UHGV virus genome: UHGV-0110231
Length of the DNA: 41,294 nucleotides
Strand: one strand, 5' to 3'
DNA from: a virus
A program made the position numbers and the translations under genes. Positions 5,345-38,719 of this stretch are shown here, piece after piece. The notes beneath the pieces were generated by a model. The model saw only the letters and a list, made by a program, of their open reading frames with translations, was not told where the DNA came from and did no database searches. Within the stretch, counting starts at the first letter, position 1; every line of letters starts with the position of its first letter.

Positions 5345-5929
5345 TTATTGTTTGTTTTTTTCGTTCTGGTTGATGACAAATTCAATGTAACTTTCGATCT
5401 TTGCTTTCTCGGTTTCGGGTAACAATGCGTAGCGCGAGCGGTCATAGTTGATGGTCGCAGGGTCGTGCGGGTGAATCAGTAATTCATAGCCGTGACGCCC
5501 GAATGCGGATGCAACATTCTCCAGGGTGGAAATGGAAACGCTGACCTCATTGTTTAACAGGCGGCTGATTGTCACCTGGGCGACGCCGGATGCGCGGTGA
5601 AGTTTTCCCTGTGTTGAAAGGTCGCGGCTTTCGCTCATCCAGCGTTCCAGGTTGTGAGCCGCCAGCTGACCAATGTCGCTTGGGCCGACAGGCTGAAAAC
5701 CTTCCTGAGAAAGCGAGCGATCGATATCAAGCCAGTTACGGGGTTTATTGGCGGCAGCTTCAATTTTTCGCGCAACCTGGTCGCCGATAACCTTCTTGCC
5801 AAGAGCCCAGCGGTTTACCAGATTTGCCTGAGTTCCAAGTTTTTCTGCCATCCGCGTCTGAACACCATTGAATTCACGGTCGATCAAGTCGTTGAGATTT
5901 TGCCTGCGGACGTCCTGGATACTTTTCAT
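5345..5929 (-). CDS. Prophage repressor with two HTH (XRE-type) domains and no recognisable S24 peptidase domain
   Basis: 194 aa; N-terminal HTH (MAEKLGTQANLVNRWALGKK) and a second HTH (ASGVAQVTISRLLNNEVSVSISTLENVASAFG); divergent from the cro-like gene across an operator cluster. Confidence 0.7.
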   Translation of the reverse strand: MKSIQDVRRQNLNDLIDREFNGVQTRMAEKLGTQANLVNRWALGKKVIGDQVARKIEAAANKPRNWLDIDRSLSQEGFQPVGPSDIGQLAAHNLERWMSESRDLSTQGKLHRASGVAQVTISRLLNNEVSVSISTLENVASAFGRHGYELLIHPHDPATINYDRSRYALLPETEKAKIESYIEFVINQNEKNKQ

Positions 5930-5984
5930 TTTCTGGAAAATCGCCTCGTATATGAATCAGTAGATGATTCAATTTAAAGCAATA

Positions 5985-5999
5985 TTACCCAACAGGTAA
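5985..5999. promoter_or_regulatory. Operator site 1 in the repressor/cro intergenic region
   Basis: TTACCCAACAGGTAA. Confidence 0.55.
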
Positions 6000-6001
6000 A
6001 T

Positions 6002-6016
6002 GCACCTCATAGGTAA
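6002..6016. promoter_or_regulatory. Operator site 2 (degenerate)
   Basis: GCACCTCATAGGTAA. Confidence 0.4.
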
Positions 6017-6032
6017 CTATCCTTGATTTTTG

Positions 6033-6047
6033 TTACCTTATGGGTGA
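6033..6047. promoter_or_regulatory. Operator site 3, between the putative -35 (TTGATT) and -10 (GAATAT) of a rightward promoter
   Basis: TTACCTTATGGGTGA. Confidence 0.5.
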
Positions 6048-6083
6048 ATATTTATTATCTGAAATAAATATCAGGCAATAGCT

Positions 6084-6314
6084 ATGAGCGATAACGGACA
6101 TTTCGATTTCAAAAAGCACTGGCTTGCACTTACTCCGGATGAGCGTGAAGCCTTCGCACAGGAAGCCGGAACGACGAGTCACTATATCCAGACTCACTTA
6201 ACAGGTAAGCGCAAAATGCCAGGTAAAGTATTGATGAATGGGCTTTTTAAAGCCTGTAAAACAAGACAATGGCTGCGCTCAAAAGCAGAACTGGCATACT
6301 TCTTCTACTCATGA
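6084..6314 (+). CDS. Cro-like HTH regulator
   Basis: 76 aa; first rightward gene after the operators; HTH-like segment EAGTTSHYIQTHLTGKRKMP. Confidence 0.55.
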   Translation: MSDNGHFDFKKHWLALTPDEREAFAQEAGTTSHYIQTHLTGKRKMPGKVLMNGLFKACKTRQWLRSKAELAYFFYS

Positions 6315-6336
6315 TATCCAGCCACAACCCTCTGTA

Positions 6337-6359
6337 GACCGCCATCCGGCGGTCTTTTC
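6337..6359 (+). terminator. Rho-independent terminator after the cro-like gene (tR1-like)
   Basis: Hairpin GACCGCC-atcc-GGCGGTC followed by TTTTC. Confidence 0.6.
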
Positions 6360-6369
6360 ATATCTATTC

Positions 6370-6384
6370 TTACCTCAAAGGTAA
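6370..6384. promoter_or_regulatory. Operator-like palindrome downstream of the terminator
   Basis: TTACCTCAAAGGTAA. Confidence 0.5.
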
Positions 6385-6464
6385 TAAAAAACCAAATCTG
6401 GTTGATCTTTTTTTTGTGTCAGCACAAAATAACCGTAATCCCAATACTAATAACAGGGCTTACC

Positions 6465-6665
6465 ATGGAAATCATTACACGTATTGATGCCGCAAAGCGC
6501 GGACTTAAACGCTACTACACCGGAAAACCATGTAAGCACGGACATGACAGTGAACGCTGGGTTTACAACGGACACTGTGTTGAGTGCACCATGGAATCAA
6601 ACCGTCGCATCAGGGCAGAGATTAAGCAGATCATGATTAATTCCTCCCCACAACACTCAAGCTGA
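6465..6665 (+). CDS. Small Cys/His-rich (zinc-binding?) protein in the cII position
   Basis: 66 aa; motif KPCKHGH...NGHCVEC. Confidence 0.45.
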   Translation: MEIITRIDAAKRGLKRYYTGKPCKHGHDSERWVYNGHCVECTMESNRRIRAEIKQIMINSSPQHSS

Positions 6666-6680
6666 TAGCGGAGATTAATC

Positions 6681-7496
6681 ATGAGCAGACATGCAACAGA
6701 TTGGGCCTGGGAGACAGATCCAGGTAGCTCATCATTAAAGCTCATACTGCTCTCGATGGCTGACAGAGCCGATGAATATAACCTCTGCTACCCCAGCATA
6801 GAACGCCTCGTTAAAGACACTTGCCTGAATAAAAAAACCGTGCAGGCCGGGCTTATATCGCTCATGAAAATGGGGCTTATTTCAGATACCGGAGAGAGAA
6901 AGGGAGCGACAAAAAGAGTGCGGGTTTTCTCTCTTAATATAACCAAAAACGGGAACATTAAAGGCAACCGGGAGGGTGGCAATGAACCCGAAAACGGTAA
7001 TGTTACCGAAAACGGGAATATACCCAAAAACGGGATGTTGAATGATCCCAAAAACGGGATGTTGAATGATCCCAAAAACGGGATCCAGAACCAGTCATAT
7101 AACCAGTCATTTAACCAAGAGAGGGAGAGCAGGACAAAAAACGGGGATTCTGTGCATCATGACCCCGGCGCAAACAACGCCGTGATGAATAACTTTGTTC
7201 CTCCTGGTGGGCCAGGGCAATTAGGCAAATTTGTCATGCATGAACAATGGCAGCCATCAGATGACTTTCTTCGGAAAAGCTCATTGCAGGGGATCTACCT
7301 GGACAGTCTGCCAACGGCACAGGAACTTGCAGAGTTCAGAATTTACTGGATGGCTGAGGGTAAGGCATACCATCAGGCACAGTGGGAGCAGAAGCTGGCA
7401 AGGCGGCTGCAGATTAGCAGACAGAAGCAATCAACATTACCTGATAACAACGTTCCGCACTGGAACAGCCCTGAAGCATGGGAGGATTTCTTGTGA
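6681..7496 (+). CDS. Replication initiator (lambda O-like replisome organiser) with N-terminal winged-helix domain
   Basis: 271 aa; N-terminal HTH; iterons embedded in the coding sequence, as in lambda O. Confidence 0.65.
   Translation: MSRHATDWAWETDPGSSSLKLILLSMADRADEYNLCYPSIERLVKDTCLNKKTVQAGLISLMKMGLISDTGERKGATKRVRVFSLNITKNGNIKGNREGGNEPENGNVTENGNIPKNGMLNDPKNGMLNDPKNGIQNQSYNQSFNQERESRTKNGDSVHHDPGANNAVMNNFVPPGGPGQLGKFVMHEQWQPSDDFLRKSSLQGIYLDSLPTAQELAEFRIYWMAEGKAYHQAQWEQKLARRLQISRQKQSTLPDNNVPHWNSPEAWEDFL
6943..7083. repeat. Putative replication origin iterons (CCAAAAACGGGA, at least 5 copies including two exact 24-bp tandem units)
   Basis: Copies at 6943, 7006, 7024, 7048 and 7072, plus variants at 6988 and 7134; they encode the PKNGMLND peptide repeats. 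Confidence 0.6.
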
Positions 7497-8278
7497 ACAA
7501 CGTTTTTACCGCGATACAAAACCGTGACGGAGAAGCCCTTTCTCGCATGTCAGGTTATGAGCATCAGTACACCAACAATGACAACGTGGTGAACATGTCA
7601 GCAGAGAGGCTTGTTGATGCCCTTTTCAAACAGCTGAAACAACTGTTTCCGGCGGCAGTGGTAACCAACCTGAAGACGCCAGAGCAGGAAGTTGCTGCAA
7701 AACAGCAGTGGATTGCTGCGTTTGCCGAAGGGGGGATCCGAACCCGTGAACAGGTTTCTGCTGGTATGCGCCACGCCCGCGCCAGTGAGTCTCCGTTCTG
7801 GCCGTCGCCAGGGCAATTCATCAAGTGGTGTAAAGACAGCAAGATGGTTCTTGGCGTCACCATTGACGATGTGATGGCGGAGTTTCACCGGTACAGCAAG
7901 GAAAAAAGTTTATATCCTGGTGGTCCCGAAAGATTCCCGTGGCGACATCCGGTTATGTACTGGGTCGTATGTGATACCCGCCGTGCAATGTATCAGCGCC
8001 AGCTTAGCGAGATTGAGGTTGAGAAACACGCGCGCAGGCTGCTCGATGATTGGGCGAAAAAGGTGGCTTCCGGACAGCAGATACCCGATCCGGTGATCAG
8101 CATACAGGCAAAGCCAGAACCCATGAGTACGCCTCCGGACACAGGGAGAGACGTTTACCATCCACCAGGGCGAAGTTTCGGGTGCATGCCTAACGCCGCC
8201 ACCCTTGGGGGAATAACACCGGCGCAGTGGCTGATGGAGGAATACAGGCGGGGAAAGGCGTCAGGATTTATCAAGTAA
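7493..8278 (+). CDS. Replication protein (lambda P-like helicase-loader position)
   Basis: GTG start with GGGAGGA Shine-Dalgarno (alternative ATG at 7478); immediately follows and overlaps the O-like gene. Confidence 0.5.
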   Translation: MNNVFTAIQNRDGEALSRMSGYEHQYTNNDNVVNMSAERLVDALFKQLKQLFPAAVVTNLKTPEQEVAAKQQWIAAFAEGGIRTREQVSAGMRHARASESPFWPSPGQFIKWCKDSKMVLGVTIDDVMAEFHRYSKEKSLYPGGPERFPWRHPVMYWVVCDTRRAMYQRQLSEIEVEKHARRLLDDWAKKVASGQQIPDPVISIQAKPEPMSTPPDTGRDVYHPPGRSFGCMPNAATLGGITPAQWLMEEYRRGKASGFIK

Positions 8279-8315
8279 TACCAGCGCGATAGCGCATTTT
8301 TTTACGTCTCGATAA

Positions 8316-8330
8316 TTACCTTAGAGGTAA
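8316..8330. promoter_or_regulatory. Operator-like palindrome
   Basis: TTACCTTAGAGGTAA. Confidence 0.5.
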
Positions 8331-8377
8331 TAAAATATTCTAAAATCTATTGATTTCGTGTCTTATGTGGTTTTTAA

Positions 8378-8392
8378 TTACCTAAGGGGTAA
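8378..8392. promoter_or_regulatory. Operator-like palindrome, 4 nt before the ATG at 8396
   Basis: TTACCTAAGGGGTAA. Confidence 0.5.
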
Positions 8393-8395
8393 ATC

Positions 8396-8743
8396 ATGAG
8401 AAAACAGATGCAGGCTCTTGGTCGACTCAAAACAGGCCAGATGAACAAAACAGAATCTGCGTATTGCCAGCACCTTGAGCTGCGTAAACGTGCAGGAGAA
8501 ATCGTCTGGTATCGATTTGAGGGTATCAAGCTGCGGTTAGCTGACAACACGTTCTATACGCCAGATTTTGCTGTGATGCTCGCCACCGGCGAGATGGAAC
8601 TGCACGAAGTGAAAGGGGGATTCTGGACCGATGACGCCAGAGTGAAAACCAAAGTCGCCGCAGATCAGTATCCGTTCCGAATCATCGGGGTAACGGTTAA
8701 GCCAAAGAAAGCAGGTGGTGGCTGGAACATCGAAGAGTTCTGA
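8396..8743 (+). CDS. Small PD-(D/E)XK-type nuclease (DUF1064-like; possible Holliday-junction resolvase)
   Basis: 115 aa; YTPDF ... ELHEVKG matches a D...E.K nuclease signature. Confidence 0.45.
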   Translation: MRKQMQALGRLKTGQMNKTESAYCQHLELRKRAGEIVWYRFEGIKLRLADNTFYTPDFAVMLATGEMELHEVKGGFWTDDARVKTKVAADQYPFRIIGVTVKPKKAGGGWNIEEF

Positions 8744-8804
8744 ATCGACGATCTTTTTAGTTATCAATGTAATCAATAAGTTATGTGGATAAGCGAGGGT
8801 AAAG

Positions 8805-9284
8805 ATGGAAAGTAATATCAAAGGGTTAGTTGCCGCCGGGCATGAGATGGCTTCGGAACTGAAAGCAGAATGTGGTGCCGTTGATATGCGCAGTGTGGCA
8901 AAGCTCATCAGCGATTTGGCAACGCAACTGGAAGTGCAACTGGTGCGTGCTAATGCGCTGGCAGCGGAGAATGCGGGGCTGAAGTCTGGCGCTATGGATG
9001 AAATCAAGGTTATCAACCGTGGAGGGCAGGCATATTGCGTAAAAGATGGAGTGCAAGTTAATCCCATGTATGCAAGAGGGTGGAATGACTATCGCGCAAA
9101 GTCTCTGCAATCAGACACCCCAGCCACCGATGCTTTCCTGGCTGAAATTGAACGCAAAGCAATCCGCAAGTTCATTAACAGCATTGAACACATCCTGCGT
9201 GACAAGTTATCACCGTATGACACCGAAGAGATGCTTGAGGCTATGCGTATTTTTCTGGAAGAACAGGGAGGTGAGCAAAAATGA
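8805..9284 (+). CDS. Hypothetical protein
   Basis: 159-aa ORF with Shine-Dalgarno in the accessory region. Confidence 0.45.
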   Translation: MESNIKGLVAAGHEMASELKAECGAVDMRSVAKLISDLATQLEVQLVRANALAAENAGLKSGAMDEIKVINRGGQAYCVKDGVQVNPMYARGWNDYRAKSLQSDTPATDAFLAEIERKAIRKFINSIEHILRDKLSPYDTEEMLEAMRIFLEEQGGEQK

Positions 9285-9598
9285 CGATCACAAAACAACG
9301 TGTAGAAAAAATCATATCCCGCATTGAAATGTATGGGCATGGTGCCGGGTATACCGCTGACGAGGTTTATGACCTTGCTGTACTGGCGCTGAATTTATCA
9401 AATATCGCAAAACTCAAGCGATACGAGCTTGATATGGATGGTTGTGACTCGTTCGGTCAGGATTGTGGCGCTGACATGACTGAAGATTCTGATGGCGATT
9501 ATGTCCTGTTTGATGACGTGGTTAAGTTGTTTGAGTTTGATACAACCACTCAGAAGTTAGAAAGCCCAGCAAAGGAGGCAGCCAGTGAGCGAGATTGA
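9281..9598 (+). CDS. Hypothetical acidic protein
   Basis: 105 aa; GGAGGTGA Shine-Dalgarno; start overlaps the previous stop. Confidence 0.45.
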   Translation: MTITKQRVEKIISRIEMYGHGAGYTADEVYDLAVLALNLSNIAKLKRYELDMDGCDSFGQDCGADMTEDSDGDYVLFDDVVKLFEFDTTTQKLESPAKEAASERD

Positions 9599-10250
9599 CT
9601 ATCAGGCACTGCGTGAGGCGGCAGTGAAAGCAACGTGGGGAGACTGGGACTCATATAAACCACACCGTGGCGCACGTGGTTATGAGGTCCGACTAAGTAG
9701 TCAGGCCATTGCGCAACACGTTCTGAAAAACAACGTTGAATTTATTGCTGCCTTTAATCCAAAGGTTGCTTTGGCACTACTGGATGAACGGGAAAGAAAC
9801 CAGCAATACATCAAAAACCGCGACCAGGAGAACGAGGATATTGCGCTAACGGTAGGGAAGCTGCGCGTTGAGCTGGAAGGCAAAGACAGCAAAATAGCCA
9901 ATCTTACCGCCGAACGCGATGCTCTTCGTGAAGGTGAGATGGGCGACGCTAGGCATAGCAACACACGGGCCGCAGCTGATATCTACTTCCAACTGGTCGA
10001 GGAGTGCGAAATTCCTGCTGGCGGTTCTCTGGTCGAGTACGTTGACGATATGCGCGAGAAGTTGGAAGCCGCAGAGAAGCGCATAGCAGAACTGGAAGCA
10101 CGGGAGGTTGTACTGCCGCGTGCGCACGATGTTCACCCATTAGGGCCGCAGTCGGCGAAAATTTTTTGTGAGTTTCACCGGAGTATCGTGAACAGATGCG
10201 CCGATGAGATTCGCAAGGTTGGCGTCAAAGTCAGCATCAAGGGGAATTAG
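9585..10250 (+). CDS. ead/Ea22-like protein
   Basis: 221 aa; N-terminus SEIDYQALREAAVKATWGDW typical of Ea22-like prophage proteins; coiled-coil middle; GTG start with AAGGAGG. Confidence 0.55.
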   Translation: MSEIDYQALREAAVKATWGDWDSYKPHRGARGYEVRLSSQAIAQHVLKNNVEFIAAFNPKVALALLDERERNQQYIKNRDQENEDIALTVGKLRVELEGKDSKIANLTAERDALREGEMGDARHSNTRAAADIYFQLVEECEIPAGGSLVEYVDDMREKLEAAEKRIAELEAREVVLPRAHDVHPLGPQSAKIFCEFHRSIVNRCADEIRKVGVKVSIKGN

Positions 10251-10254
10251 GGAT

Positions 10255-10833
10255 ATGGCTGAACTAACCAAAGAATGGCTGAAGCAAACTATCGCTGAAT
10301 ACGAAGCCAATCGTGATGAATTACCGTTTGGACTGGATACCAACAGTGCCATTGAGCTTCAGGCGTTCAAGTTGGCGCTGGCATCGCTGGAAGCAGAACA
10401 AGTTGCTTATATTTTCAAACATCCGGCTGGAAAATTATTCTGGGCTTTAACGGATGAAAGCAATAAAGATCAATCGGACGTTATTCCTGTTTATGCTGCC
10501 TCACCTGCACCGATAGCGTCGGAGGCCATTGAAAACGCTATTGAATACATCCGCAGTATCGTTTTTCACATCGATGAAGACGATTACCACGGCAAACATA
10601 TTGCGTATTTCATGCGACAAGCATTGGCCTGGCTGGAAGGGCATTCATGCAGTGATGACAGTCAGGGCAAATCCGATAATTCACCATTGCCGCGCTACCA
10701 GGTGATCGAATTAACAATGCTGGTTAAACAATTGGTCAGCCAACTGAAAAAAGCAAAACCTGATTGCAAATTACCTGATAGGGCGATGGATTATCTTTTG
10801 CGAAACGGACTGGTAAGTGCGGAGGGGGTTTAA
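10255..10833 (+). CDS. Hypothetical protein
   Basis: Internal ATG after the previous stop, with GGGA Shine-Dalgarno. Confidence 0.45.
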   Translation: MAELTKEWLKQTIAEYEANRDELPFGLDTNSAIELQAFKLALASLEAEQVAYIFKHPAGKLFWALTDESNKDQSDVIPVYAASPAPIASEAIENAIEYIRSIVFHIDEDDYHGKHIAYFMRQALAWLEGHSCSDDSQGKSDNSPLPRYQVIELTMLVKQLVSQLKKAKPDCKLPDRAMDYLLRNGLVSAEGV

Positions 10834-10835
10834 CG

Positions 10836-11387
10836 ATGACCATTTCTACAAAAAAGCCTCTTTATGCTGAGGTTCACAATGTTCCTGATGATTATGAGTT
10901 CACTGACGAGGAACTAAACAGAATTATTGCAGGTGATATGTTCACTCCTCGTCAGGACGCAATAATGGCACGGGAGATACAGAAACTCCGTGCCGCCATG
11001 CTTCATGGTGCAGAACCTGTAAAACAGACTTACAAGTTGCCTCCCCTGTCATCCAGCGAAGTAAACGAAGCGGCATGGAGATTACACAACATGCTGACTG
11101 AATGCATCCCTCTAAATGGTCATCAGTTCAACAATCTGAAGGGTTGGTTCTATGAGGCGTTAAAGGTCGCAATGCGCAACTATCCGGCAACTCCGGATGG
11201 TTGGGTTCCGGTAAGCGAAAGGATGCCGGAACCTTATGAATACGTTCTTGTAACTGATGGTTTTGATGGCTGTGAGGTTATGCGTGTTAATACAGATGGC
11301 TACTGGGGGCCAGCAAAGAGTTTATATCCAGGTAGTATTACCCACTGGATGCCACTGCCAGCAGCACCGCAGCAGGAGGTGAAGTAA
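10836..11387 (+). CDS. DUF551-like protein
   Basis: 183 aa; C-terminal WVPVSERMPE...W motif. Confidence 0.5.
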   Translation: MTISTKKPLYAEVHNVPDDYEFTDEELNRIIAGDMFTPRQDAIMAREIQKLRAAMLHGAEPVKQTYKLPPLSSSEVNEAAWRLHNMLTECIPLNGHQFNNLKGWFYEALKVAMRNYPATPDGWVPVSERMPEPYEYVLVTDGFDGCEVMRVNTDGYWGPAKSLYPGSITHWMPLPAAPQQEVK

Positions 11388-11509
11388 TGAACAAGTGCAA
11401 CGCTCTGCTTTATGCCATGGTGATTGGTTTCGGCCTGGCTGCTGGTATCCGGGTTTATATTGCCTGGGAGTCATTAATCAATCTGGCGTGGAGTGCGATT
11501 CGTGGCTAA
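11387..11509 (+). CDS. Small hydrophobic membrane peptide (40 aa)
   Basis: Not in the ORF track; GGAGGTG Shine-Dalgarno, TAATG overlap with the upstream stop; MNKCNALLYAMVIGFGLAAGIRVYIAW... Confidence 0.35.
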   Translation: MNKCNALLYAMVIGFGLAAGIRVYIAWESLINLAWSAIRG

Positions 11510-11840
11510 ATCCCCCGCAGAACGCAAAGCCGCGCAGCGCGCTCGGCAGTCAGCCGCCGGTGAGCGCAAAATTGAACTGGTGCTGGATAAGCAGGAGCAG
11601 GAAATGCTGGAGCGTAACTGTGCCGCCCGTCGCCCTGGTCGTGCGCCGTATGAAATGAGCGAATACATCGCGTTACTGATCCGCCAGGATGATGCACGCG
11701 TGCGCGGGCGTATAAAATCGATCAGCAGAAAACGTTGCGGTAAGTGCGGCGAGAGAGTTCCAGTTAATTCATGCCCGTGTAATGGTGACTCGCAATGCTG
11801 GGTGACTAAAGGCTGGCATGAAACGAAATTAATAGTGTGA
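11493..11840 (+). CDS. Basic protein with C-terminal Cys cluster (zinc ribbon); candidate late-gene regulator
   Basis: 115 aa; CGKCGERVPVNSCPCNGDSQC; last gene before a terminator and the terminase genes. Confidence 0.45.
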   Translation: MRFVAKSPAERKAAQRARQSAAGERKIELVLDKQEQEMLERNCAARRPGRAPYEMSEYIALLIRQDDARVRGRIKSISRKRCGKCGERVPVNSCPCNGDSQCWVTKGWHETKLIV

Positions 11841-11848
11841 CATGTCAC
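11837..11848. repeat. Perfect 12-bp palindrome GTGACATGTCAC (copy 1)
   Basis: Overlaps the stop codon of the 11493..11840 gene. Confidence 0.7.
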
Positions 11849-11889
11849 GAGTAGATTATGCATGATGAATTTGATGGATTTTGAATACT

Positions 11890-11915
11890 GCCGCCAACTA
11901 TGGCGGCTTTATTTT
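11890..11915 (+). terminator. Rho-independent terminator upstream of terminase (tR'-like)
   Basis: Hairpin GCCGCCA-acta-TGGCGGC followed by TTTATTTT. Confidence 0.55.
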
Positions 11916-11958
11916 GCATGGTACTATTACCACAACGGTAACTATTACCACGGTGGTT

Positions 11959-12555
11959 ATGATGCCTGCTGAACCTAAAACCTATAAACGCAAATCAACG
12001 CAATTTAAGCCGCTCACAGCAATGCAGGAGGCTTATTGCCAGTCATACATCAAAACGCCTGAAAACCAGACTCAGGCAGCGATTAACGCAGGATTCTCCC
12101 CAAACACAGCGGCAGTTAAAGCCAGTGTCATGATGCGCGATGAACGCATTCAAAAACGGATTGCCGAGTTGATGGAGGAGCGCAACAAACGAATGCGCGT
12201 CAGTGCCGATTACGTTCTCATGCGCCTGGTGGAGATCGACCAGATGGACGTGATTGATATCCTCAACGACGATGGGAGCCTTAAGCCAATCCGCGAGTGG
12301 CCGAAAATCTGGCGCACTACGCTTAGTGGCTTTGATCTGTCATCGACCATCATGAACATGAACGAGGATTCGATAGAGACAATCCTCAAAAAAATTAAAT
12401 GGCCTGACAAGGTGAAGAACCTCGAACTGATTGGTAAGCACGTCGACGTCAACGCATTCAAAGAACGCCTGGATGTTAATGTGAATGTGACAATTGCTGA
12501 TCGCATAGCGGCAGCCAGGAAGCGACTCAAAGAACGTCAGGATGGTAATCAGTGA
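11959..12555 (+). CDS. Terminase small subunit
   Basis: 198 aa; HTH-like N-terminal part (AINAGFSPNTAAVKASVMMRDERIQKRIAEL); immediately precedes and overlaps the large subunit gene. Confidence 0.7.
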   Translation: MMPAEPKTYKRKSTQFKPLTAMQEAYCQSYIKTPENQTQAAINAGFSPNTAAVKASVMMRDERIQKRIAELMEERNKRMRVSADYVLMRLVEIDQMDVIDILNDDGSLKPIREWPKIWRTTLSGFDLSSTIMNMNEDSIETILKKIKWPDKVKNLELIGKHVDVNAFKERLDVNVNVTIADRIAAARKRLKERQDGNQ

Positions 12556-14474: not shown

Positions 14475-14672
14475 AATCTCACCTTAAAAAAATGCCCGGC
14501 GAACCGGGCGAACTGGAAGCAATGAGTTATGCCTTCCGTGGCTGTACGGGTTTACAGCATGAAGTCATCGCAATGGCGTCCTGCTGTAAAAAGGGCGGTG
14601 ATAGTCCTTCAAGGGAAACCATCACCGCCAAGCCCATGGAACTTCTGGCATCACGGTCCTTAGGCGTGATTC

Positions 14673-28680: not shown

Positions 28681-31155
28681 ATGAGACAGGAATGTATACA
28701 AGCGGTTCAGCAGGCGGCGCAGCGCATGTTAACGGCGCGAGAAATACAGAACATTGAAGACCGCATTTATCGAAATATGCGCTCCATTGCTCGTGATGAC
28801 CCGATGTCGTGGCGACAACTTTCCGAATCAGAGCGGCTATATCGAGCAGCACAATTGGCATCTGAAGAATTACAGCGAGAAGTGGCATTAAAGAAACGTC
28901 GTGTGGCTCTCACTATAGCCGCGCGTCAGAGATTGGATAAATTTATCAATAGCTATCAAGGGGCTGATGGGAAACTTGGCGCTCTTAACCGTACTATAGC
29001 TTTTAATGCAGACGGTAAATCTAATTTCCTCTCTGTTGAATCCAGAACAAAAGCCACCCGTGATTATGCATTGAGTCAATTGCAGGAGGCATTCGAAGCA
29101 GTTGATCCTCGCTTTTTTGGTCTGTTTGAAGATGAAGCTGGCGTACGTGACCTGGTATATGAAATGCGGGGGCAAAATACTGGCAATGCTAAAGCAAGAA
29201 AAGGTGCTAAGGCGTGGAGAGAAGTTACAGAGCTGCTGCGCCGCCGGTTTAATGATGCTGGTGGGGACATTGGCTATCTCGAAAACTGGGGGATCCCTCA
29301 ACATCATTCTATGGAAAAGGTTGGGGCGGTATCAAAGGATAAGTGGGTTAGCGATGTTATAGGTAAGCTGGATCGCAAATATTATACCCGAGCCGATGGA
29401 CAACTGATGAACGATGCCGAGTTGTCTGCATTTCTTGGAGAGGCTTATAACACGATCGCTACTGGTGGGCTGAATAAGCTTACTGATACCGGAATGCGAA
29501 TTTCCGGCGCACGTGCTAACCGTGGTAATGCATCACGACAGATACATTTCAAAGATGCAGATTCCTATCTCCAATATCAACAACTTTATGGCGATCGCTC
29601 TCTATGGGAAATCATGGTCGGTCACCTGGAAGGTATCAGTAAAGATATTGCTCTGGTGGAAACATATGGTCCAAACCCCGATCATGTTTTCCGCTCCCTT
29701 CTTGATCAGGTTAAGGCAGAAACGGCAACAGCTAACCCGAGTAAAACCGGTAGCGTCGAGCGTCTGGCGAACAAAACAGAGAACTTGTACAACTTTATTT
29801 CCGGAAAAACACAGCCTGTAGCGAATCCCCACATCGCGCGATGGTCTGACAATATCCGCAACTGGCTGGTTGCCAGCAGACTCGGATCCGCGTTGCTGTC
29901 ATCGTTCTCTGATCTTGGAACCATGTATCTGTCTGCGAAGGTTACCAACCTTCCAATGAACCAGTTATTTCGCAACCAGCTTGAAGCTATGGACCCAACG
30001 AACCGTACTGAGCTTGCGCGGGCGCGCCGCGCTGGCCTGGCGATGGAATCTCTACTTGGCAGCGTTAACCGCTGGGCGATGGATAATATGGGGCCGTCTG
30101 TGTCTCGTTGGGCGGCAACGGCGGTAATGCGTGCCAGTGGGCTTACAGCATGGTCAGATGCGCACAAGCGCGCCTATGGCGTAACCATGATGGGAAGCCT
30201 GGGAGAAGTAGTGTCACGGACACCAGACCTTCGTAGCCTTGATGACTCTGATTTTCGTATCCTGAAAAGCAAAGGGATTACTGACACAGACTGGAGCGTA
30301 TGGAAGTTGGCGCAACAGGAGGACTGGGGGAACGGTAATAATACGATGCTGACGCCGGAAAGCATTATGCGTATCCCTGATTCAGCAGTTAAACATCTTG
30401 GTGAGCCTGAACGCGTGAAATTTGAGGCAATGCGTAAACTGCTCGGTGCCGTAACTGAAGAAGTTGATATGGCTGTTATTACACCGGGAGCACGTGAGCA
30501 ACTGATAACCGGTTCTGGTATTCAGCGTGGAACATGGAAAGGTGAATTAACGAGAAGTGTTTTCCTGTTTAAATCGTTCCCTATCTCGGTTGTTATGCGT
30601 CACTGGTCACGCGCTATGGGTATGCCGTCTGCTGGTGGGCGTGCGGCATATATTGCGACGTTTATTGCCAGTACGACCATTCTTGGCGCTTTGTCGCAGC
30701 AACTTAACGACCTTGCGTCTGGTCGTAATCCTCGAGAGATGACAGGAGAAGATGCCGCAAAATTCTGGCTTGGTGCTCTACTGAAAGGTGGTGGTCTTGG
30801 TCTTTACGGTGACTTTTTATTGTCAGATCACACTAGGTACGGAAGCGGCGCGCTGGCGTCGATGCTTGGCCCGGTAGCTGGTCTGGTTGATGACGTAGTG
30901 AAGATAGCTCAGGGCATACCGCTAAATGCTGTGGAAGGGAAGAGTGAGCAGACTGGTGGTGATCTGGTGAAGCTGGGGAAAGGTTTGATGCCAGGTGCGA
31001 ATCTCTGGTACTTGAAGGCGGCTCTCGATCACATGATCTTTAACCAGATGCAGGAGTATTTTTCACCAGGCTATTTGCGTAAAATGGAGCAACGTTCGAA
31101 GAAAGAGTTTAACCAGACATACTGGTGGCGACCTCAGGATGTCACTCCGCAATAA
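28681..31155 (+). CDS. Large internal virion / ejection protein (gp16-like position)
   Basis: 824 aa; last large gene before the tailspike region. Confidence 0.55.
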   Translation: MRQECIQAVQQAAQRMLTAREIQNIEDRIYRNMRSIARDDPMSWRQLSESERLYRAAQLASEELQREVALKKRRVALTIAARQRLDKFINSYQGADGKLGALNRTIAFNADGKSNFLSVESRTKATRDYALSQLQEAFEAVDPRFFGLFEDEAGVRDLVYEMRGQNTGNAKARKGAKAWREVTELLRRRFNDAGGDIGYLENWGIPQHHSMEKVGAVSKDKWVSDVIGKLDRKYYTRADGQLMNDAELSAFLGEAYNTIATGGLNKLTDTGMRISGARANRGNASRQIHFKDADSYLQYQQLYGDRSLWEIMVGHLEGISKDIALVETYGPNPDHVFRSLLDQVKAETATANPSKTGSVERLANKTENLYNFISGKTQPVANPHIARWSDNIRNWLVASRLGSALLSSFSDLGTMYLSAKVTNLPMNQLFRNQLEAMDPTNRTELARARRAGLAMESLLGSVNRWAMDNMGPSVSRWAATAVMRASGLTAWSDAHKRAYGVTMMGSLGEVVSRTPDLRSLDDSDFRILKSKGITDTDWSVWKLAQQEDWGNGNNTMLTPESIMRIPDSAVKHLGEPERVKFEAMRKLLGAVTEEVDMAVITPGAREQLITGSGIQRGTWKGELTRSVFLFKSFPISVVMRHWSRAMGMPSAGGRAAYIATFIASTTILGALSQQLNDLASGRNPREMTGEDAAKFWLGALLKGGGLGLYGDFLLSDHTRYGSGALASMLGPVAGLVDDVVKIAQGIPLNAVEGKSEQTGGDLVKLGKGLMPGANLWYLKAALDHMIFNQMQEYFSPGYLRKMEQRSKKEFNQTYWWRPQDVTPQ

Positions 31156-31164
31156 GGAAGTGTT

Positions 31165-31338
31165 GTGTTTTTAATTATTTTGAGTGTGATAATTTCTGGT
31201 GGGTTGTTATTTATTGACCGCTACAAATATTTTCTTAACCATCAGACTCAAGCTATTTGCTGGTTCATCTTTGTTGTGCAGGGAGTAGTTCTTGTTGCAA
31301 GCCTTATTGAGGGGAGGCCTCTGATTTTTACTGGGTAA
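31165..31338 (+). CDS. Small hydrophobic membrane peptide (57 aa)
   Basis: Not in the ORF track; GTG start 4 nt after an AGGAAG Shine-Dalgarno. Confidence 0.3.
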   Translation: MFLIILSVIISGGLLFIDRYKYFLNHQTQAICWFIFVVQGVVLVASLIEGRPLIFTG

Positions 31339-31350
31339 ATAGGTGACTAC

Positions 31351-31647
31351 ATGCAAGCTATAGGATTCATTGTTTATATCGTCGTTGGTCTTTTTCAGTT
31401 GGCAGTAATTATGGCTGGGCTTGAATCATGGTTTGGATTGCACTGGATAATTGCAGCCCCCATTGCTTTCATCGTTAGCTATATTCCATTTGTTGGAGCG
31501 ATTGTTGGTATGGTTGGCGCTGTGGATGTATGGCGGTGGGAGTGGTGGCAGGCTGGCCTTCTCTTCTTTGGTGGGATCATCTTTGCTATTGTCTGCGGTG
31601 GAATGTCATCATTTTTCGAATGGCTATCATTCAGAAAAAGAACGTGA
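31351..31647 (+). CDS. Polytopic inner-membrane protein; candidate superinfection-exclusion factor
   Basis: 98 aa, roughly three hydrophobic helices; sits where P22 carries sieA. Confidence 0.5.
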   Translation: MQAIGFIVYIVVGLFQLAVIMAGLESWFGLHWIIAAPIAFIVSYIPFVGAIVGMVGAVDVWRWEWWQAGLLFFGGIIFAIVCGGMSSFFEWLSFRKRT

Positions 31648-31655
31648 CATGTCAC
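31644..31655. repeat. Perfect 12-bp palindrome GTGACATGTCAC (copy 3)
   Basis: Overlaps the stop codon of the 31351..31647 gene, in the same register as copy 1. Confidence 0.7.
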
Positions 31656-31679
31656 AGGCCGCTTTCGCGGCCTTTAAAT

Positions 31680-31937
31680 TTACCGGGTTTGTTTTCGTAA
31701 TTGTTCGGCACAATAGTCGAGATGTGTTTGCAGATCCCGCATAGACATCTGTGAGCTGGTGACGTAGTTAATCAGTGCAGTCAGTTCGGCAAGTGGGCCA
31801 TCGACATTAAATCCATCCTTATCGAGATCCCGGAGTAATTTCATCAAGTGCGATCCTTCCACCAGTGACCTGACGCCTCCCGGCGTGTGAATCTTTTCGG
31901 TAAATCCGTCTTCCAGTGGATAGTGATACTGCTGCAT
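31680..31937 (-). CDS. Small protein (85 aa) under a LexA-box promoter; candidate SOS-inducible antirepressor or effector
   Basis: ATG at 31937 with GGAG Shine-Dalgarno; LexA box 20 nt upstream; the longer ORF to 32003 would place the box inside the coding sequence. Confidence 0.5.
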   Translation of the reverse strand: MQQYHYPLEDGFTEKIHTPGGVRSLVEGSHLMKLLRDLDKDGFNVDGPLAELTALINYVTSSQMSMRDLQTHLDYCAEQLRKQTR

Positions 31938-31956: not shown

Positions 31957-31976
31957 AACTGTATAAATGTACAGTA
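31957..31976. promoter_or_regulatory. LexA (SOS) box
   Basis: AACTGTATAAATGTACAGTA against consensus TACTGTATATATATACAGTA; CTGT-N8-ACAG intact. Confidence 0.7.
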
Positions 31977-32132: not shown

Positions 32133-34922
32133 ATGACGGTCTCAACCGTAGTTGACCATAACGATTACACCGGGAACGGCGTTACGACATCCTTCCCGTA
32201 TACCTTCCGCATTTTCAACAAATCTGACCTGGTTGTTCAGGTGGTTGACCTTGATGAAAATATCGCTGTGCTAGCTCTTGATACTGATTACACAGTTACC
32301 GGGGCTGGAGGGTATAACGGTGGTAATGTAATTCTGTCGAAGGCGTTGGCTAACGGTTATCAGATTTCTATATCACGAGAACTCCCGGTTACGCAGGAAA
32401 CTGATTTGCGTAATCAGGGTAAGTTCTTTGCTGAGGTGCATGAAGACGCGTTCGATAAACTGACGATGCTGATACAGCAGGCGTACAGTGTGTTCCGCCT
32501 GGCGCTTCGCAAGCCGTCCAGCATCGCGAATTGGTACGATGCATTGGGAAACTACATCCGTAATGTGCGTGACCCTCGAGATCCTCAGGATGCGGCCACA
32601 AAGCATTACGTCGACTCATTAAGTGCAGGAAATACATCACATACTGATTTGTTATTTAGTAGAACATTGCGTACCGCAGAGAGCATCCCGCAACTTCCAT
32701 CTGTGGAGTCGCGAAAAAATAAAATTGTTGGCATGGATAACAACGGTAATCCCATAATGTTATTGCCTGAATCAGGAAGCGCGGCTGATGTCATGATTGA
32801 ACTGGCAAAAAATAGCGGAGCTGGGCTGATAGGATACAATGATACAGAGGAATACCCAGATGGAACGGTTGGCGATATTCTCAATAGACGACCTTTCGTT
32901 CAACTTTCTGATTTCGGCGTTACTGGATCTGGCGATGAAACAGAGAAGGTTAGATCGGCACATGCCAAAGCCAATGCTCGAGGCGTTCCCGTTATCTATG
33001 ATGTCTCTGAAGTTACTCTTGATGCAAAAGCAAACATAGAAGTCAGAACATCAGTAGACTTTAATGGTTGCATTATCCATCCTGTATTTTATGGAACGCC
33101 ATCTTACGACACAACGCCGACTTATTCGTTGCTAGGTAAAGCGTCTGAAAACGTGACATCAAAACTGTCACAGTCTGGTATGCGTAAGGGTGAAATGGCC
33201 CTTTACGGCGGTATGGCATCTTATAGTCGTGGAACATTCTGGATGGATACACGAGACCCTTTATGTAAACGTAGTCTCTCCGATGTGACCCCAAACCACT
33301 ATAAGACAACGATAAACCGCATCACGAAGTATGGTGGTTTACAGTATCCACTTGAGCATGATTTTACTGCATCACCTTCTCCAGAGGCCTACTTCAGACC
33401 TGATGAAGACTTCTGGTTGAAAGTTGAAGGCGCTCACATTGATACGTCTGGTATGACGTCAGGTGTTGTTTTTAAAGCATTAAGGTCCCAAGTTAAGTTT
33501 TCAGACATAACTGTACGGCAAGACGACAATGTTAAGATGACAAACATCCGGCAAATATTTTATCTCGGTGATGGTGTTAGCCAGATAAGATTTAATGACG
33601 TATCAGCAGAGGCTATGTCGAGCTATAACGCGAACAATGGCACATATCTGTTAAGCAGCAATTATGCGGCAGAGATTATTCTAGATAATGTTAATGCTGT
33701 GCAAGGTTGGGGTGCTCTCGGTCTTCATAAAGTGAGAGATTTGACAGTTACTAATTCAACTTTAAATCGGGTAGATGGACATTATCATATTTTCGACATA
33801 GACGTTAATCACACTAAGTTACACGAGTTCGGTGTACTCATTGGTGCTGGTGGAGGATACCTTCGTGTAACAAATTGCACTAAGTACCTCGGCACTCAAA
33901 CAGACCTAACTGGGACGAGCGGGACTGCTATAGATAAGACACGCCGAAGTGTCATCTATATGCGAGACGATTACGGTAGCTATTTTGACGGGGATATCAC
34001 CGTCGACAACGTAGTGTATAAAATGTCCAGAGAATTATCATTTGCTTCTGCATCCGAGGAGTGGCCAGGTATTCTGTCCTGTGTGTCGTTCAATGCCGGG
34101 GTTAGTACAACAAGTTCAACAACTCCTGATTATGGCTATACAGCACCAGTTCCGTGGGGGACAACTGTCACTGTTAAAAACATTACGGTAGAAGTGTTTA
34201 GGGATTCAATACTGGATTCATGGCTCACTTTTGTAGCTGTTAACTACAACGGGAATTACATACTTCCCAGCGTGTTAATGCCAGCAAGTATCACTGTGAA
34301 AGATATTAAATATAGCAAACCTCCGAGGACTGCGAAAATAGCACCCGTCATTCTCCCGGATTTACGTGGAACAACTGCGGCAGTTGCCTCTGCTAATAAT
34401 CGGGCTTTCTTTAACTCAATAATTAATATTGAGAATATTCAAAGTGGTTTTGCAAAAGACCGTCAAATCGGAGCTCTGAATACTGGGGTCCAGACACTTA
34501 TGTGCATGTATACTCAGACAGAGATATCTAACTTCCCTACTCCGTCTGTTGTTCCAGAAATAAATGTGCGTAACTTTTATGGCTTTTCTGGTAAGTTTGA
34601 CATTCCAGGAAGACTAAGCCTAACGGACTGCTTCGTCATTTCTCTGACCGACTCATCTGGTGGCAGAAATGCAGATTCTTTTATAAAAGTATCCGGAGGG
34701 TTTGTCTACGCGTTGCCTAGTTCTTCTGGTGGTTCTTCATCACAGCTACCAAGAGCCGAGTGGAATTCTGTTAGGTTTATTAAAAGCCCTGTCTCTCCAG
34801 ACCTAACTGATTACGACTCAATACAGGGTTGCACATTCGAAAATGGCAATCCACCGATAGGGATAACAGTGGCACTTGCGTTTTCAGGAAGTGTTGGTGA
34901 CGCTGCTAATAGATTGCAATAA
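32133..34922 (+). CDS. Tailspike / receptor-binding protein
   Basis: 929 aa; N-terminal particle-binding domain (MTVSTVVDHNDYTGNGVTTSFPYTFRIF...) followed by a long Ser/Thr/Asn/Gly-rich beta-helix-like region. Confidence 0.75.
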   Translation: MTVSTVVDHNDYTGNGVTTSFPYTFRIFNKSDLVVQVVDLDENIAVLALDTDYTVTGAGGYNGGNVILSKALANGYQISISRELPVTQETDLRNQGKFFAEVHEDAFDKLTMLIQQAYSVFRLALRKPSSIANWYDALGNYIRNVRDPRDPQDAATKHYVDSLSAGNTSHTDLLFSRTLRTAESIPQLPSVESRKNKIVGMDNNGNPIMLLPESGSAADVMIELAKNSGAGLIGYNDTEEYPDGTVGDILNRRPFVQLSDFGVTGSGDETEKVRSAHAKANARGVPVIYDVSEVTLDAKANIEVRTSVDFNGCIIHPVFYGTPSYDTTPTYSLLGKASENVTSKLSQSGMRKGEMALYGGMASYSRGTFWMDTRDPLCKRSLSDVTPNHYKTTINRITKYGGLQYPLEHDFTASPSPEAYFRPDEDFWLKVEGAHIDTSGMTSGVVFKALRSQVKFSDITVRQDDNVKMTNIRQIFYLGDGVSQIRFNDVSAEAMSSYNANNGTYLLSSNYAAEIILDNVNAVQGWGALGLHKVRDLTVTNSTLNRVDGHYHIFDIDVNHTKLHEFGVLIGAGGGYLRVTNCTKYLGTQTDLTGTSGTAIDKTRRSVIYMRDDYGSYFDGDITVDNVVYKMSRELSFASASEEWPGILSCVSFNAGVSTTSSTTPDYGYTAPVPWGTTVTVKNITVEVFRDSILDSWLTFVAVNYNGNYILPSVLMPASITVKDIKYSKPPRTAKIAPVILPDLRGTTAAVASANNRAFFNSIINIENIQSGFAKDRQIGALNTGVQTLMCMYTQTEISNFPTPSVVPEINVRNFYGFSGKFDIPGRLSLTDCFVISLTDSSGGRNADSFIKVSGGFVYALPSSSGGSSSQLPRAEWNSVRFIKSPVSPDLTDYDSIQGCTFENGNPPIGITVALAFSGSVGDAANRLQ

Positions 34923-36816: not shown

Positions 36817-36921
36817 TTTTGGTAAGAACAATTTTGGGTATGTTTAACCACATATGGTTTATTGTGTATGATGAACTCACCAACTAAGGGGGTTCTTTAT
36901 GCGTATTAAACGGTGGTCACT

Positions 36922-37326
36922 ATGTCTGCATCGCTAACCGCTGACACAATAAATCAGGGGCTTAGCTACGGAGCGTTGGCGGCAGTGGTCGCTGGGGTTC
37001 CTCCAGAGGTGGCGTTAGGTTCGCTGGCAGGCGCGGTAATTTTCGTTACCTCTGCCGTCGAGTATCCAGTTAAGCGCCGCGTCCTGCTTTCTCTTCTCAG
37101 CTTTCTCTGTGGCTTGCTCTTCTATAAACCTACTGCCTCTATCCTGATCGGTGTTGCCAGCTTGATCCCAACAATCACGCAGGAATCGTTCGAGAGAGGC
37201 GTGGTATTTTCTGCTGGTGCATTCGTGTCGGCAATCGTCGCGGTACGTGTTGGCATCTGGCTTTATCACCGTTCCGATAATCCACGCGAATTAATTCCGG
37301 GGAGAAAAGACGATGACAACTCATGA
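36922..37326 (+). CDS. Holin-like membrane protein
   Basis: Several TM segments and a charged C-terminal tail; alternative GTG start at 36913. Confidence 0.5.
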   Translation: MSASLTADTINQGLSYGALAAVVAGVPPEVALGSLAGAVIFVTSAVEYPVKRRVLLSLLSFLCGLLFYKPTASILIGVASLIPTITQESFERGVVFSAGAFVSAIVAVRVGIWLYHRSDNPRELIPGRKDDDNS

Positions 37327-37621
37327 GCTGCTTTTACTGATTGCCAATGCGGTTATCTGTTCTGCGATAGCAATCCGCGTCGGAACCTTCCGGCGTAATG
37401 GCTCACAACACCGCCGGTGGGGTGGGTGGATAGCCTACTTCCTTATCGTGGCATCCGCCAGCATCCCCGTCCGCGCCGCATATGCAATCTGGTATCACAC
37501 ACCAATGGCCGCTGATTTATCAGAGGTCATCATCAATGCTGTCATGCTTGCCGCCGTTCTGAAGACGCGCGGTAACGTCGTGCAGATATTCAAAATATCG
37601 AGGTCTCAACATGGACATTAA
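37313..37621 (+). CDS. Holin / antiholin-like membrane protein
   Basis: 102 aa with about 3 TM helices; immediately precedes the endolysin gene. Confidence 0.55.
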
Positions 37622-38240
37622 CCAGTTCCGGCGCGCAGCCGGTATCACTGAGCAACTGGCCGCACGCTGGTATCCACACATCACTGCAGCAATGAATGAA
37701 TTTGGCATTACCAAGCCAGAAGACCAGGCGATGTTTATTGCGCAGGTCGGGCATGAGTCCGGAGGTTTTACCCGGTTGCAGGAAAACTTCAACTACAGCG
37801 TGAGTGGGTTGTCAGGTTTCATCCGCGCCGGGCGTCTCACTCTGGGCCAGGCCAATGCTTTGGGCCGCCGTGCTGGTGAACCATCGTTACCGCTGGAGCG
37901 CCAGCGCGCAATCGCAAATCTGGTGTACAGCAAACGCATGGGTAACAATGCTCCAGGCGATGGCTGGAATTACCGTGGGCGCGGGCTTATCCAGATTACC
38001 GGTTTGAATAACTATCGTGACTGCGGAAACGGTCTGAAAGTTGACCTGCTGGAGAATCCTGAACTGCTGGCGCAGGACGTATACGCGGCTCGTAGCGCGG
38101 CGTGGTTCTTCTCCAGCAAAGGCTGCATGAAGTATACCGGAGATATTGCACGTGTAACTCTGATTATCAATGGTGGCCGGAACGGCATTGATGACCGGCG
38201 CGCGCGATACATCACTGCCAGTAAGGTGCTGACGGTATGA
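37611..38240 (+). CDS. Endolysin, glycoside hydrolase family 19 (chitinase-like)
   Basis: 209 aa; motifs [12 protein letters not shown] and ENFNYS are characteristic of GH19 lysins. Confidence 0.75.
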
Positions 38241-38719
38241 TCCTGACATTCGTAAGAGCATATTGGAAACAGCTGCTTATCGTGTTGATGCTTGCTGCTC
38301 TGTTCATCGTCGGAGTGGTTGCCTGGAATATACACGGCAGCCGCCAGTACGATGCCGGGTATGCGCAGGCGGAAGAAGACCGCAAAGCCGAAGATGAGAA
38401 TGTTCGTCAGCACTATGAACAGGAGAAAGCGATCAATGAACGCAAAGCGCAGCAGAGGATCGACCAGGCGCGCAATAATGCTCTTGATGCTGCCGCTCGC
38501 GCTGGCCGGTTGCAGCAACAGCTCGTTGCCATCCGTGAGCAGCTCAGGCAGTATAACGCCATTGTCGGCGCTGGGACGTCAGCCACAGAAACCGGAGTTT
38601 TGCTTGCCGACGTGCTCAGCAAATCTCTCGAGAGAAACAGACAACTGGCAGAGTATGCTGACCGGGCAGCCGAAGCCGGAAGAGTCTGCGAAAAACAGTA
38701 TGACACCCTGACCAGATAG
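38237..38719 (+). CDS. Rz-like i-spanin
   Basis: 160 aa; N-terminal TM helix then coiled-coil periplasmic domain; ATGA overlap with the endolysin stop. Confidence 0.7.
38478..38711 (+). CDS. Rz1-like o-spanin lipoprotein, embedded in the +1 frame of Rz
   Basis: [16 protein letters not shown] has a lipobox (LAGC); Pro/Ser-rich mature part. Confidence 0.6.
   Translation: MLLMLPLALAGCSNSSLPSVSSSGSITPLSALGRQPQKPEFCLPTCSANLSRETDNWQSMLTGQPKPEESAKNSMTP

Follow-up and report, generated by a model that had tools for sequence, protein, structure and literature searches.

Two small open reading frames (ORFs), designated ORF57 and ORF98, were analyzed in the virus genome UHGV-0110231, whose whole stretch of 41,294 nucleotides (nt) is referred to here as the window. 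They encode hydrophobic proteins of 57 and 98 amino acids (aa) and follow the last large gene of the late virion operon, whose product resembles gp17 of phage epsilon15 (Table 1). An earlier note, made from the letters of this DNA, had described a hydrophobic peptide with a Shine-Dalgarno sequence and a polytopic membrane protein, both placed behind an internal virion protein gene and ahead of a LexA-box gene and a tailspike gene, and each of these elements was found where the note had put it. We found that the two genes occupy a slot in which unrelated envelope proteins replace one another among near-identical phages, and that each of them is inherited independently of the other. From this arrangement we tentatively favor a role of both proteins in superinfection exclusion.

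Table 1. Coordinates of ORF57, ORF98, and the surrounding features, in positions of the window
Feature	Position	Strand	Remarks
ORF57, 57-aa inner-membrane peptide	31165-31338	+	GTG start at 31165; TAA stop at 31336-31338
Shine-Dalgarno of ORF57, AAGGAAG	31154-31160	+	Overlaps the gp17 stop codon; read from the sequence
ORF98, 98-aa polytopic inner-membrane protein	31351-31647	+	ATG start; family phrog_3075, without a Pfam model
Shine-Dalgarno of ORF98, AGGTGA	31341-31346	+	4 nt ahead of the ATG; read from the sequence
Slot	31155-31656		Between the conserved gp17 3' end and the conserved operon terminator
gp17-like virion protein, 824 aa	28681-31155	+	Last large gene of the late virion operon; left boundary of the slot
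Intrinsic terminator	31656-31682	+	7-bp GC-rich stem, UUUC loop, U-rich tail; ends the late operon
85-aa gene similar to epsilon15 gp19	31680-31937	-	Convergent, outside the cassette; Prokaryotic Genome Annotation Pipeline (PGAP) coordinates in L004
LexA box CTGTATAAATGTACAG	31959-31974		Perfect; promoter region of the 85-aa minus-strand gene, ~20 nt upstream of the ATG
Tailspike	32133-34922		Next after the LexA-box gene
AT3 and SGNH acyltransferase, 600 aa	34959-36761	-	Directly after the tailspike
Complete lysis cassette	36913-38719		~5 kb from ORF57/ORF98, with the tailspike and acyltransferase genes between
Second CTGT-N8-ACAG match, CTGTACGGGTTTACAG	14542-14557		Within structural genes; spacer AT-poor

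The GTG codon of ORF57 begins 9 nt past the gp17 stop codon (31153-31155), and a spacing of 9-10 nt between the gp17 stop and a small ORF was also seen in a Salmonella locus (L016), in Klebsiella oxytoca (L018), and in phage phiV10. The peptide has a grand average of hydropathy (GRAVY) of 1.28, with hydrophobic stretches at about residues 2-17 and 30-48, and its two hydrophobic helices are separated by a basic loop, DRYKY. We infer a hairpin with both termini in the periplasm and the basic loop in the cytoplasm. Homologues of 56-58 aa were found in E. coli, Citrobacter, Salmonella, K. oxytoca, and Enterobacter, at identities down to 65%, and 42 of 44 loci had the ORF at full length (56-58 aa); the other two were a frameshifted copy (L003) and a copy of 60 aa with a variant C-terminus (L064). 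Its start codon was GTG, TTG, or ATG, depending on the lineage. The ratio of non-synonymous to synonymous substitution rates (dN/dS, Nei-Gojobori method) was 0.25 against the Salmonella copy and 0.19 against the Klebsiella copy, and ORF57 evolved much faster than gp17 (dN/dS ~0.2 versus 0.014).

ORF98 begins 12 nt after the end of ORF57. Its GRAVY is 1.26, three hydrophobic stretches were seen by hydropathy, and an AlphaFold2 model built with 22 homologues (mean predicted local distance difference test (pLDDT) 87.7) contained four helices, at residues 2-28, 32-42, 46-60, and 65-97. The protein matched phrog_3075 over its full length (E = 4e-53, residues 1-98 to profile positions 1-98), but this family has no assigned function and is hence silent on mechanism. 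About 40 homologue clusters were found in Enterobacteriaceae, and the dN/dS of ORF98 was between 0.06 and 0.19. Its conserved core consists of Q16, P46, a glycine zipper (G49xxxG53xxG56-A57), and a belt of tryptophans (W61/W63/W65/W66), followed by a basic tail at the C-terminus. In the predicted architecture, a glycine-zipper hairpin of helices, with a kink at Pro46, lies between two spanning helices, and the tryptophan belt is on the periplasmic side. Both termini would be cytoplasmic, since the basic linkers in a tandem-repeat relative, the cytoplasmic-type N-terminal fusion partners of other relatives, and the basic C-terminal tail agree on this orientation. ORF98 probably works as an oligomer.

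In the window ORF57 and ORF98 share a reading frame, the spacer (31336-31353) consisting of the TAA codon and four further codons. A read-through fusion of the two can be dismissed, since many relatives have a 1-nt insertion between the genes that breaks the shared frame, and programmed read-through left no sign in the sequence; in relatives of the phiv142-3 type that carry this insertion, annotators call a 118-aa ORF overlapping the end of ORF57. In RefSeq, PGAP annotates ORF98 and omits ORF57. This omission and the frameshifts in the ORF57 of the YDC107_2 record could be taken as signs that the frames are spurious, being chance hydrophobic frames in T-rich DNA or decaying remnants, and we consider that explanation effectively refuted. 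Because of the purifying selection, the length kept in five genera, the interchange of valid start codons, and the Shine-Dalgarno sites, both ORFs are real coding genes. The YDC107_2 record itself (L003, CP025713.1) has its gp17 split into several small ORFs as well, which points to assembly errors, and its ORF57 carries two compensating 1-nt indels; the breaks in both genes look like homopolymer sequencing errors.

By sequence, the window was classified as an E. coli prophage of the genus Uetakevirus (epsilon15/phiV10 type), and a P22-like phage was excluded. Escherichia phages phiv142-3, HEMP4, and YDC107_2 share 97-99% identity with the region, whose flanks match phiV10 and Salmonella epsilon15-type phages, all of them Uetakevirus. 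The three large genes upstream of ORF57 are the counterparts of epsilon15 gp15, gp16, and gp17. The gp17-like protein matched phrog_684 over its full length and is ~31% identical to epsilon15 gp17, and the nucleotide identity of its gene to phiV10 p20 is 97-100% per 90-nt window. Epsilon15 gp17 belongs to the family of internal virion protein D of T7 (IVP-D) (Hardies et al., PMC4819975), and it is therefore functionally fair to place ORF57 and ORF98 after the ejection-protein genes. The terminator behind ORF98, found by a terminator scan (-16.5 kcal/mol, z = -2.1), is the same element that is annotated in phiV10, and it is kept to the right of different cassettes.

ORF57 and ORF98 are the last cistrons of the late (virion) operon. 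A consensus scan gave no plus-strand sigma-70-like site upstream of either gene, a scan that a weak promoter inside coding sequence could escape, and the candidates picked out by eye were weak (TTGACC-17-AACCAT in ORF57, and TAAAAT lacking a -35 element in the gp17 3' end). Since there is no room for a promoter of their own and none was detectable, the two genes would be translated from the late transcript. The layout, with both genes on the strand of the late operon and only the short gaps between the cistrons, predicts late lytic expression.

The slot was surveyed in 80 IMG/VR loci (L023-L102) whose gp17 is 94-100% identical to that of the window. In all 80 the cargo starts ~9 nt past the gp17 stop codon, and what follows differs from phage to phage. 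ORF57 together with ORF98 was found in 35 of the 80 loci, and a phiV10-type 46-aa two-helix peptide in 25, with one further copy frameshifted. Eleven loci carried a 137-aa lipoprotein (phrog_8691) alone, without any small membrane peptide, and eight a 138-aa lipoprotein (phrog_3716), which was preceded by a small hydrophobic ORF in seven of them. Both lipoproteins are of the lipobox type and mutually unrelated; they are candidates for receptor masking or other outer-membrane functions. In epsilon15 the same position holds gp18, which has 64 aa and two helices. Every cargo of the slot is an envelope protein: the peptides with two helices, the polytopic membrane protein, the lipobox lipoproteins, and, in Klebsiella, a signal-peptide protein. 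The final 90-nt window of gp17 was modestly more conserved than the rest of the gene (0.88-0.90 versus ~0.79), which fits a recombination anchor and a regulatory element equally well. Of 5,426 complete E. coli genomes, 205 carried the cassette of ORF57 and ORF98, among them enterotoxigenic E. coli (ETEC) H10407, in which it lies at about 2851340-2851860 of NC_017633, and avian pathogenic strains.

In the locus L024 and six similar loci with the 138-aa lipoprotein, the small ORF in the first 175 nt after gp17 appears to be divided between two frames. The first helix is carried by a 41-aa ORF, and the C-terminal half of a 43-aa ORF, AAAWFGFVVFGIVLF, resembles the second helix of ORF57, AICWFIFVVQGVVLV. 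The split ORF may be a frameshifted relative of ORF57, whose version in the Salmonella locus L016 is intact at 58 aa.

Outside the E. coli cassette, the two genes were found apart. An ORF57-type gene without ORF98 is the sole slot gene in the K. oxytoca locus L018 and is followed by a lipobox lipoprotein gene in Salmonella Muenchen. Conversely, an ORF98-type gene without ORF57 directly follows the gp17 homologue in a Salmonella podophage (L006) and in Kosakonia (L015), comes after the gene of a 102-aa signal-peptide (secreted) protein in Klebsiella, and is also present in a decayed element described below. An obligate ORF57-ORF98 pair was rejected on these grounds, and the two genes are independently inherited modules. 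Between the E. coli and Klebsiella copies the non-synonymous divergence (dN) was 0.07 for ORF98 and 0.84 for the adjacent gp17, so ORF98 has been exchanged horizontally. It recurs downstream of the gp17 homologue in phages of Salmonella, Kosakonia, and Klebsiella, in which gp17 is only 26-32% identical.

The position of ORF57 raised the question of whether it belongs functionally to gp17. ORF57 is the positional analogue of epsilon15 gp18 (64 aa) and phiV10 p21 (46 aa), each of which lies right after or overlaps the gp17 stop codon, precedes the operon terminator, and forms a two-helix hairpin with a basic loop. ORF57 has the same properties, with a start within ~10 nt of the gp17 stop codon, two hydrophobic helices, and a basic loop. 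Epsilon15 and phiV10 themselves carry no ORF98. It could accordingly be a gp17-linked virion or ejection accessory, the functional equivalent of the other two peptides, co-translated with the IVP-D homologue and helping to fold, hold, or package gp17, or ejected with gp17 as a seed of the channel in the inner membrane; in that case ORF98 would be a cargo without connection to it. The recurrence of a small two-helix ORF at most 10 nt from the gp17 stop codon, or overlapping it, in epsilon15, phiV10, the window, L016, and L018 speaks for such a link, as do the K. oxytoca slot with its ORF57-type gene alone and the tight coupling of ORF57 to gp17, which suggests matched expression. However, no sequence similarity between the three peptide types was detectable, a forced alignment giving 21% identity, and they fall into different PHROGs or none. 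Moreover, the 11 of 80 loci with a lipoprotein directly after a gp17 of at least 94% identity have no hairpin peptide, the peptide is also missing in L006 and L015, and ORF57 evolves at a dN/dS far above that of gp17. Taken together, we regard an accessory function as unlikely, while giving it some weight.

The nearest mechanistic precedent for an exclusion gene at such a position is P22 sieA. SieA is a 162-164-aa protein of the inner membrane with a conserved cytoplasmic FxRYPxEAxxFNK motif near the C-terminus; it blocks DNA entry, is encoded between the last ejection-protein gene and the tailspike, and is escaped by mutations mapping to the P22 ejection proteins gp16 and gp20 (PMC10883804). 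Members of the SieA family reside in P22-like prophages between the homologues of genes 16 and 9. Like SieA, ORF57 and ORF98 are inner-membrane proteins of a temperate podophage whose genes lie past the last ejection-protein gene and ahead of the antirepressor/tailspike region; they are found in only some relatives, and the ejection-protein channel at the inner membrane would be a plausible shared target. Unlike ORF57 and ORF98, which abut the late operon and are co-oriented with it, sieA lies on the opposite strand, has its own annotated promoter, and is expressed from the prophage. Its phage has P22-type ejection proteins, whereas the phage in the window belongs to another genus and has ejection proteins of the T7 type. 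BLASTP of ORF98 against P22 SieA gave a best E value of 2.2 over 10 residues, the SieA motif was absent from both translations, and their lengths of 57 and 98 aa compare with ~160-200 aa for the SieA family. The sieA-like placing that the earlier note had proposed thus held for map position only; strand, sequence, and motif differ, and the consensus scan detected no promoter comparable to that of sieA. Three further points had to be set right: the phage is of the epsilon15/phiV10 rather than the P22 kind; prophage expression found no support, the layout pointing to the lytic cycle and no sigma-70-like site having been found; and the two genes do not form a pair. The note's description of membrane-protein genes beside the ejection-protein genes was supported, and the exchange of envelope cargoes in the slot marks them as accessory.

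Searches beyond SieA were likewise negative. Neither ORF57, ORF98, nor the LexA-box gene product matched PADLOC-DB 2.0 at E <= 1, hmmscan of both small proteins against Pfam-A (E <= 1) gave no Imm_superinfect match and no significant match to any other family, and NCBIfam, holin models included, gave no match for either. Rfam gave no significant match for the region, structure searches returned no matches, and no publication was found by the protein accessions and locus tags of ORF57 and ORF98. The two proteins lie outside the SieA, Imm, and holin families, and the analogy to SieA is positional and possibly functional. T4 Imm and HK97 gp15, small proteins with 2-4 helices in the inner membrane, block phage DNA entry at the inner-membrane step of delivery, HK97 gp15 being a cargo among tail genes. 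However, T4 imm is an early gene and HK97 gp15 is expressed from the prophage, whereas the layout of ORF57 and ORF98 predicts late expression.

Holins of class I and II deserved separate consideration, as they are small, late-expressed, oligomerizing membrane proteins with a basic C-terminal tail. ORF57 and ORF98 could be modulators of lysis timing (an accessory holin, an antiholin, or a pinholin-like protein) that tune the main lysis cassette. Their place in the late operon agrees with such a function, the size, hydrophobic pattern, and basic C-terminal tail of ORF98 recall class I holins, its glycine zipper suggests oligomerization, and ORF98 weakly matched Phage_holin_5_2 (15 bits, E = 0.03), a model that ORF57 did not match. 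The score was nevertheless far under the 29.2-bit cut-off. No endolysin gene adjoins the two genes, and a separate, complete lysis cassette, whose homologues carry Phage_holin_8, Phage_holin_3_7, Glyco_hydro_19, and DUF2514, lies 5 kb away; phages with the same lysis cassette are without ORF98. Distant members of the ORF98 family occur on non-lytic elements or as domain fusions with no endolysin nearby, and the predicted ORF98 topology, with both termini cytoplasmic, is unlike that of class I holins. A function in lysis timing is for these reasons quite improbable.

We further analyzed the distribution of the ORF98 family by a profile search of 1.84 billion representative proteins. At E <= 1e-3 the family comprised 687 clusters (50% identity), of which 241 also passed E <= 1e-10, and it extends to bacteria outside recognizable phages. 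Members that carry a name are all called "hypothetical", and no Pfam domain covers this region in any of them. In remote members Q16, P46, G49, G53, W61, W63, and F72 are invariant, G56 and A57 are nearly so, and the basic C-terminal tail is kept. Fusions of the domain to DUF805 were found in 3 of 30 long proteins tested (P0069, P0073, and P0094), and other fusion partners were RDD, MORN repeats, and a zinc ribbon, the latter two being N-terminal. One relative, P0052, matches the domain in four stretches, of which at least three are clearly units in tandem, with short basic linkers between the units; an AlphaFold2 model of it, sought as a pseudo-tetramer, had a pLDDT of 47 and was unusable.

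The family is repeatedly linked to mobile elements. Genes of the family overlap the start of a downstream DUF805 (YhaH/YhaI-type) gene in L104 (7001-7657) and L107 (7001-7665), so that the two are translationally coupled. Of the distant stand-alone members, one in Mesorhizobium overlaps a downstream DUF805 gene and adjoins a Type ISP restriction enzyme, one in Cohaesibacter lies beside a resolvase and a Bro-N protein, and among further distant members one adjoins an integrase and one is part of an early-region block of another phage. In three metagenome scaffolds (L009-L011, ~1-12300), a 103-aa ORF98 homologue accompanies a P4-like primase, SSB, and a gp15-like SLT protein that is 46% identical to that of the window over the N-terminal ~210 residues, and gp17 is reduced to a C-terminal remnant. 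Behind the ORF98 homologue and gp17 remnant come AlpA, Abi_2 or SocA_Panacea, and an integrase; the element is a decayed prophage or satellite-like island that retained the membrane gene. Together with the exchange of cargoes in the slot, the presence of distant relatives on mobile elements, some of them with defense genes, is the pattern expected of envelope-level genes of phage competition.

The DUF805 association is of interest because YhaH was reported to be necessary for infection of E. coli by two phages of the Stephanstirmvirinae, which are myophages (PMC12548472, a paper of 2025). In the boldest extension, the ORF98 family would be a widespread inner-membrane entry-block module of mobile elements that acts through DUF805 host proteins of the YhaH/YhaI type. 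ORF98 would bind or mimic its DUF805 partner and deny incoming phages an inner-membrane entry factor, and the slot after gp17 would be a general depot of genes that block receptors or entry, the two lipoproteins taking effect at the outer membrane. We consider this extension very unlikely as it stands, and the connection between ORF98 and YhaH is a lead only, two inferential steps away.

The occurrence of the family outside phages and the frequency of the cassette in E. coli, pathogenic strains included, could instead reflect a benefit to the host. Under lysogenic conversion, leaky or read-through expression of ORF57 and ORF98 would alter membrane physiology, for example the tolerance to stress, serum, or antimicrobials. 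The prophage phiv142-3, which carries the cassette, indeed improves the serum survival of an avian pathogenic E. coli strain (PMC7724020). However, the serum phenotype was mapped to orf6 and orf10 of phiv142-3, and orf12, the ORF98 gene, was outside the 14 serum-up-regulated genes, the supplement on quantitative reverse-transcription PCR (qRT-PCR) listing up-regulated genes only (PMC7724020). A lysogen of a related Uetakevirus, whose cassette differs, was unchanged in growth, stress response, serum sensitivity, and virulence (PMC9782041). The consensus scan, moreover, detected no promoter. A host-benefit function is, on balance, rather unlikely.

We favor superinfection exclusion as a possible, still tentative, function, in which ORF57 and ORF98 would change the inner membrane in such a way that incoming phages fail to deliver their genomes. 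The proteins would enter the inner membrane during late lytic growth and be present at most at a low level in the lysogen. Their targets would be the same or related phages, whose ejected gp15-gp17 must build a channel at the inner membrane. The action would be akin to that of P22 SieA or T4 Imm, exerted by unrelated proteins and probably timed late rather than in the prophage. This function is favored because the slot holds alternative, unrelated, surface-directed cargoes between conserved recombination anchors, which is typical of conflict genes, and because SieA occupies the equivalent map position. The retention of ORF98 in the decayed element with Abi_2, SocA, and an integrase also supports it.

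Several observations weigh on the other side. The missing promoter-like site and the 9- and 12-nt gaps indicate expression with the late operon, unlike classical prophage exclusion genes such as P22 sieA, which have promoters of their own, and the searches of SieA (by BLASTP), Pfam, NCBIfam, and PADLOC showed no similarity to known exclusion or defense families. The fusion of the ORF98 family to generic membrane domains (DUF805 and RDD) is compatible with a general membrane role, and the function of ORF57 could be tied to gp17, given that a small two-helix peptide right after gp17 recurs in epsilon15, phiV10, and this phage. At least one genome, TW10722, has a second match to the junction query in addition to its cassette-bearing prophage, possibly a second related prophage, although the query also matches terminator-only sites. 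Finally, the argument for exclusion was built from sequence and genomic context, and for this reason and because no promoter was detected we kept our estimate for exclusion low.

Both proteins were already in the databases as hypothetical, and accessory membrane genes of phages are a familiar category. The slot with four cargoes, the independence of ORF57 and ORF98, and the large ORF98 family with its DUF805 link were not found in the literature searched. If exclusion is true, the post-gp17 slot of Uetakevirus would amount to a small natural collection of anti-phage cargoes acting at the envelope, at least four in number and unrelated to one another, which would be easy to swap and test since common recombination anchors flank all of them, and ORF98 would give a first function to an unnamed family of several hundred clusters without a Pfam model. 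In practical terms, such prophages are found in ~4% of the complete E. coli genomes, those of ETEC and avian pathogenic strains among them, and could affect the susceptibility to therapeutic podophages. If exclusion is wrong, ORF57 and ORF98 stay ordinary uncharacterized membrane proteins of a phage.

Beyond the terminator, the product of the 85-aa minus-strand gene matched phrog_450 and the C-terminal part of the anti-repressor family phrog_1760. The gene probably codes for a small Tum/Gifsy-type antirepressor under SOS control. The corresponding intergenic region of epsilon15 carries an annotated phage-repressor site in place of the LexA box, and Bro-N antirepressors are found in the region of this gene in phiV10 and phiv142-3. 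The 600-aa acyltransferase behind the tailspike probably acetylates the O-antigen, which would convert the serotype and block adsorption; its counterparts are phiV10 Oac, with only 338 aa, and the longer acyltransferase of strain HCP4S3_I4. The second CTGT-N8-ACAG match in the window is probably due to chance, at least two matches having been obtained in 11 of 100 shuffles.

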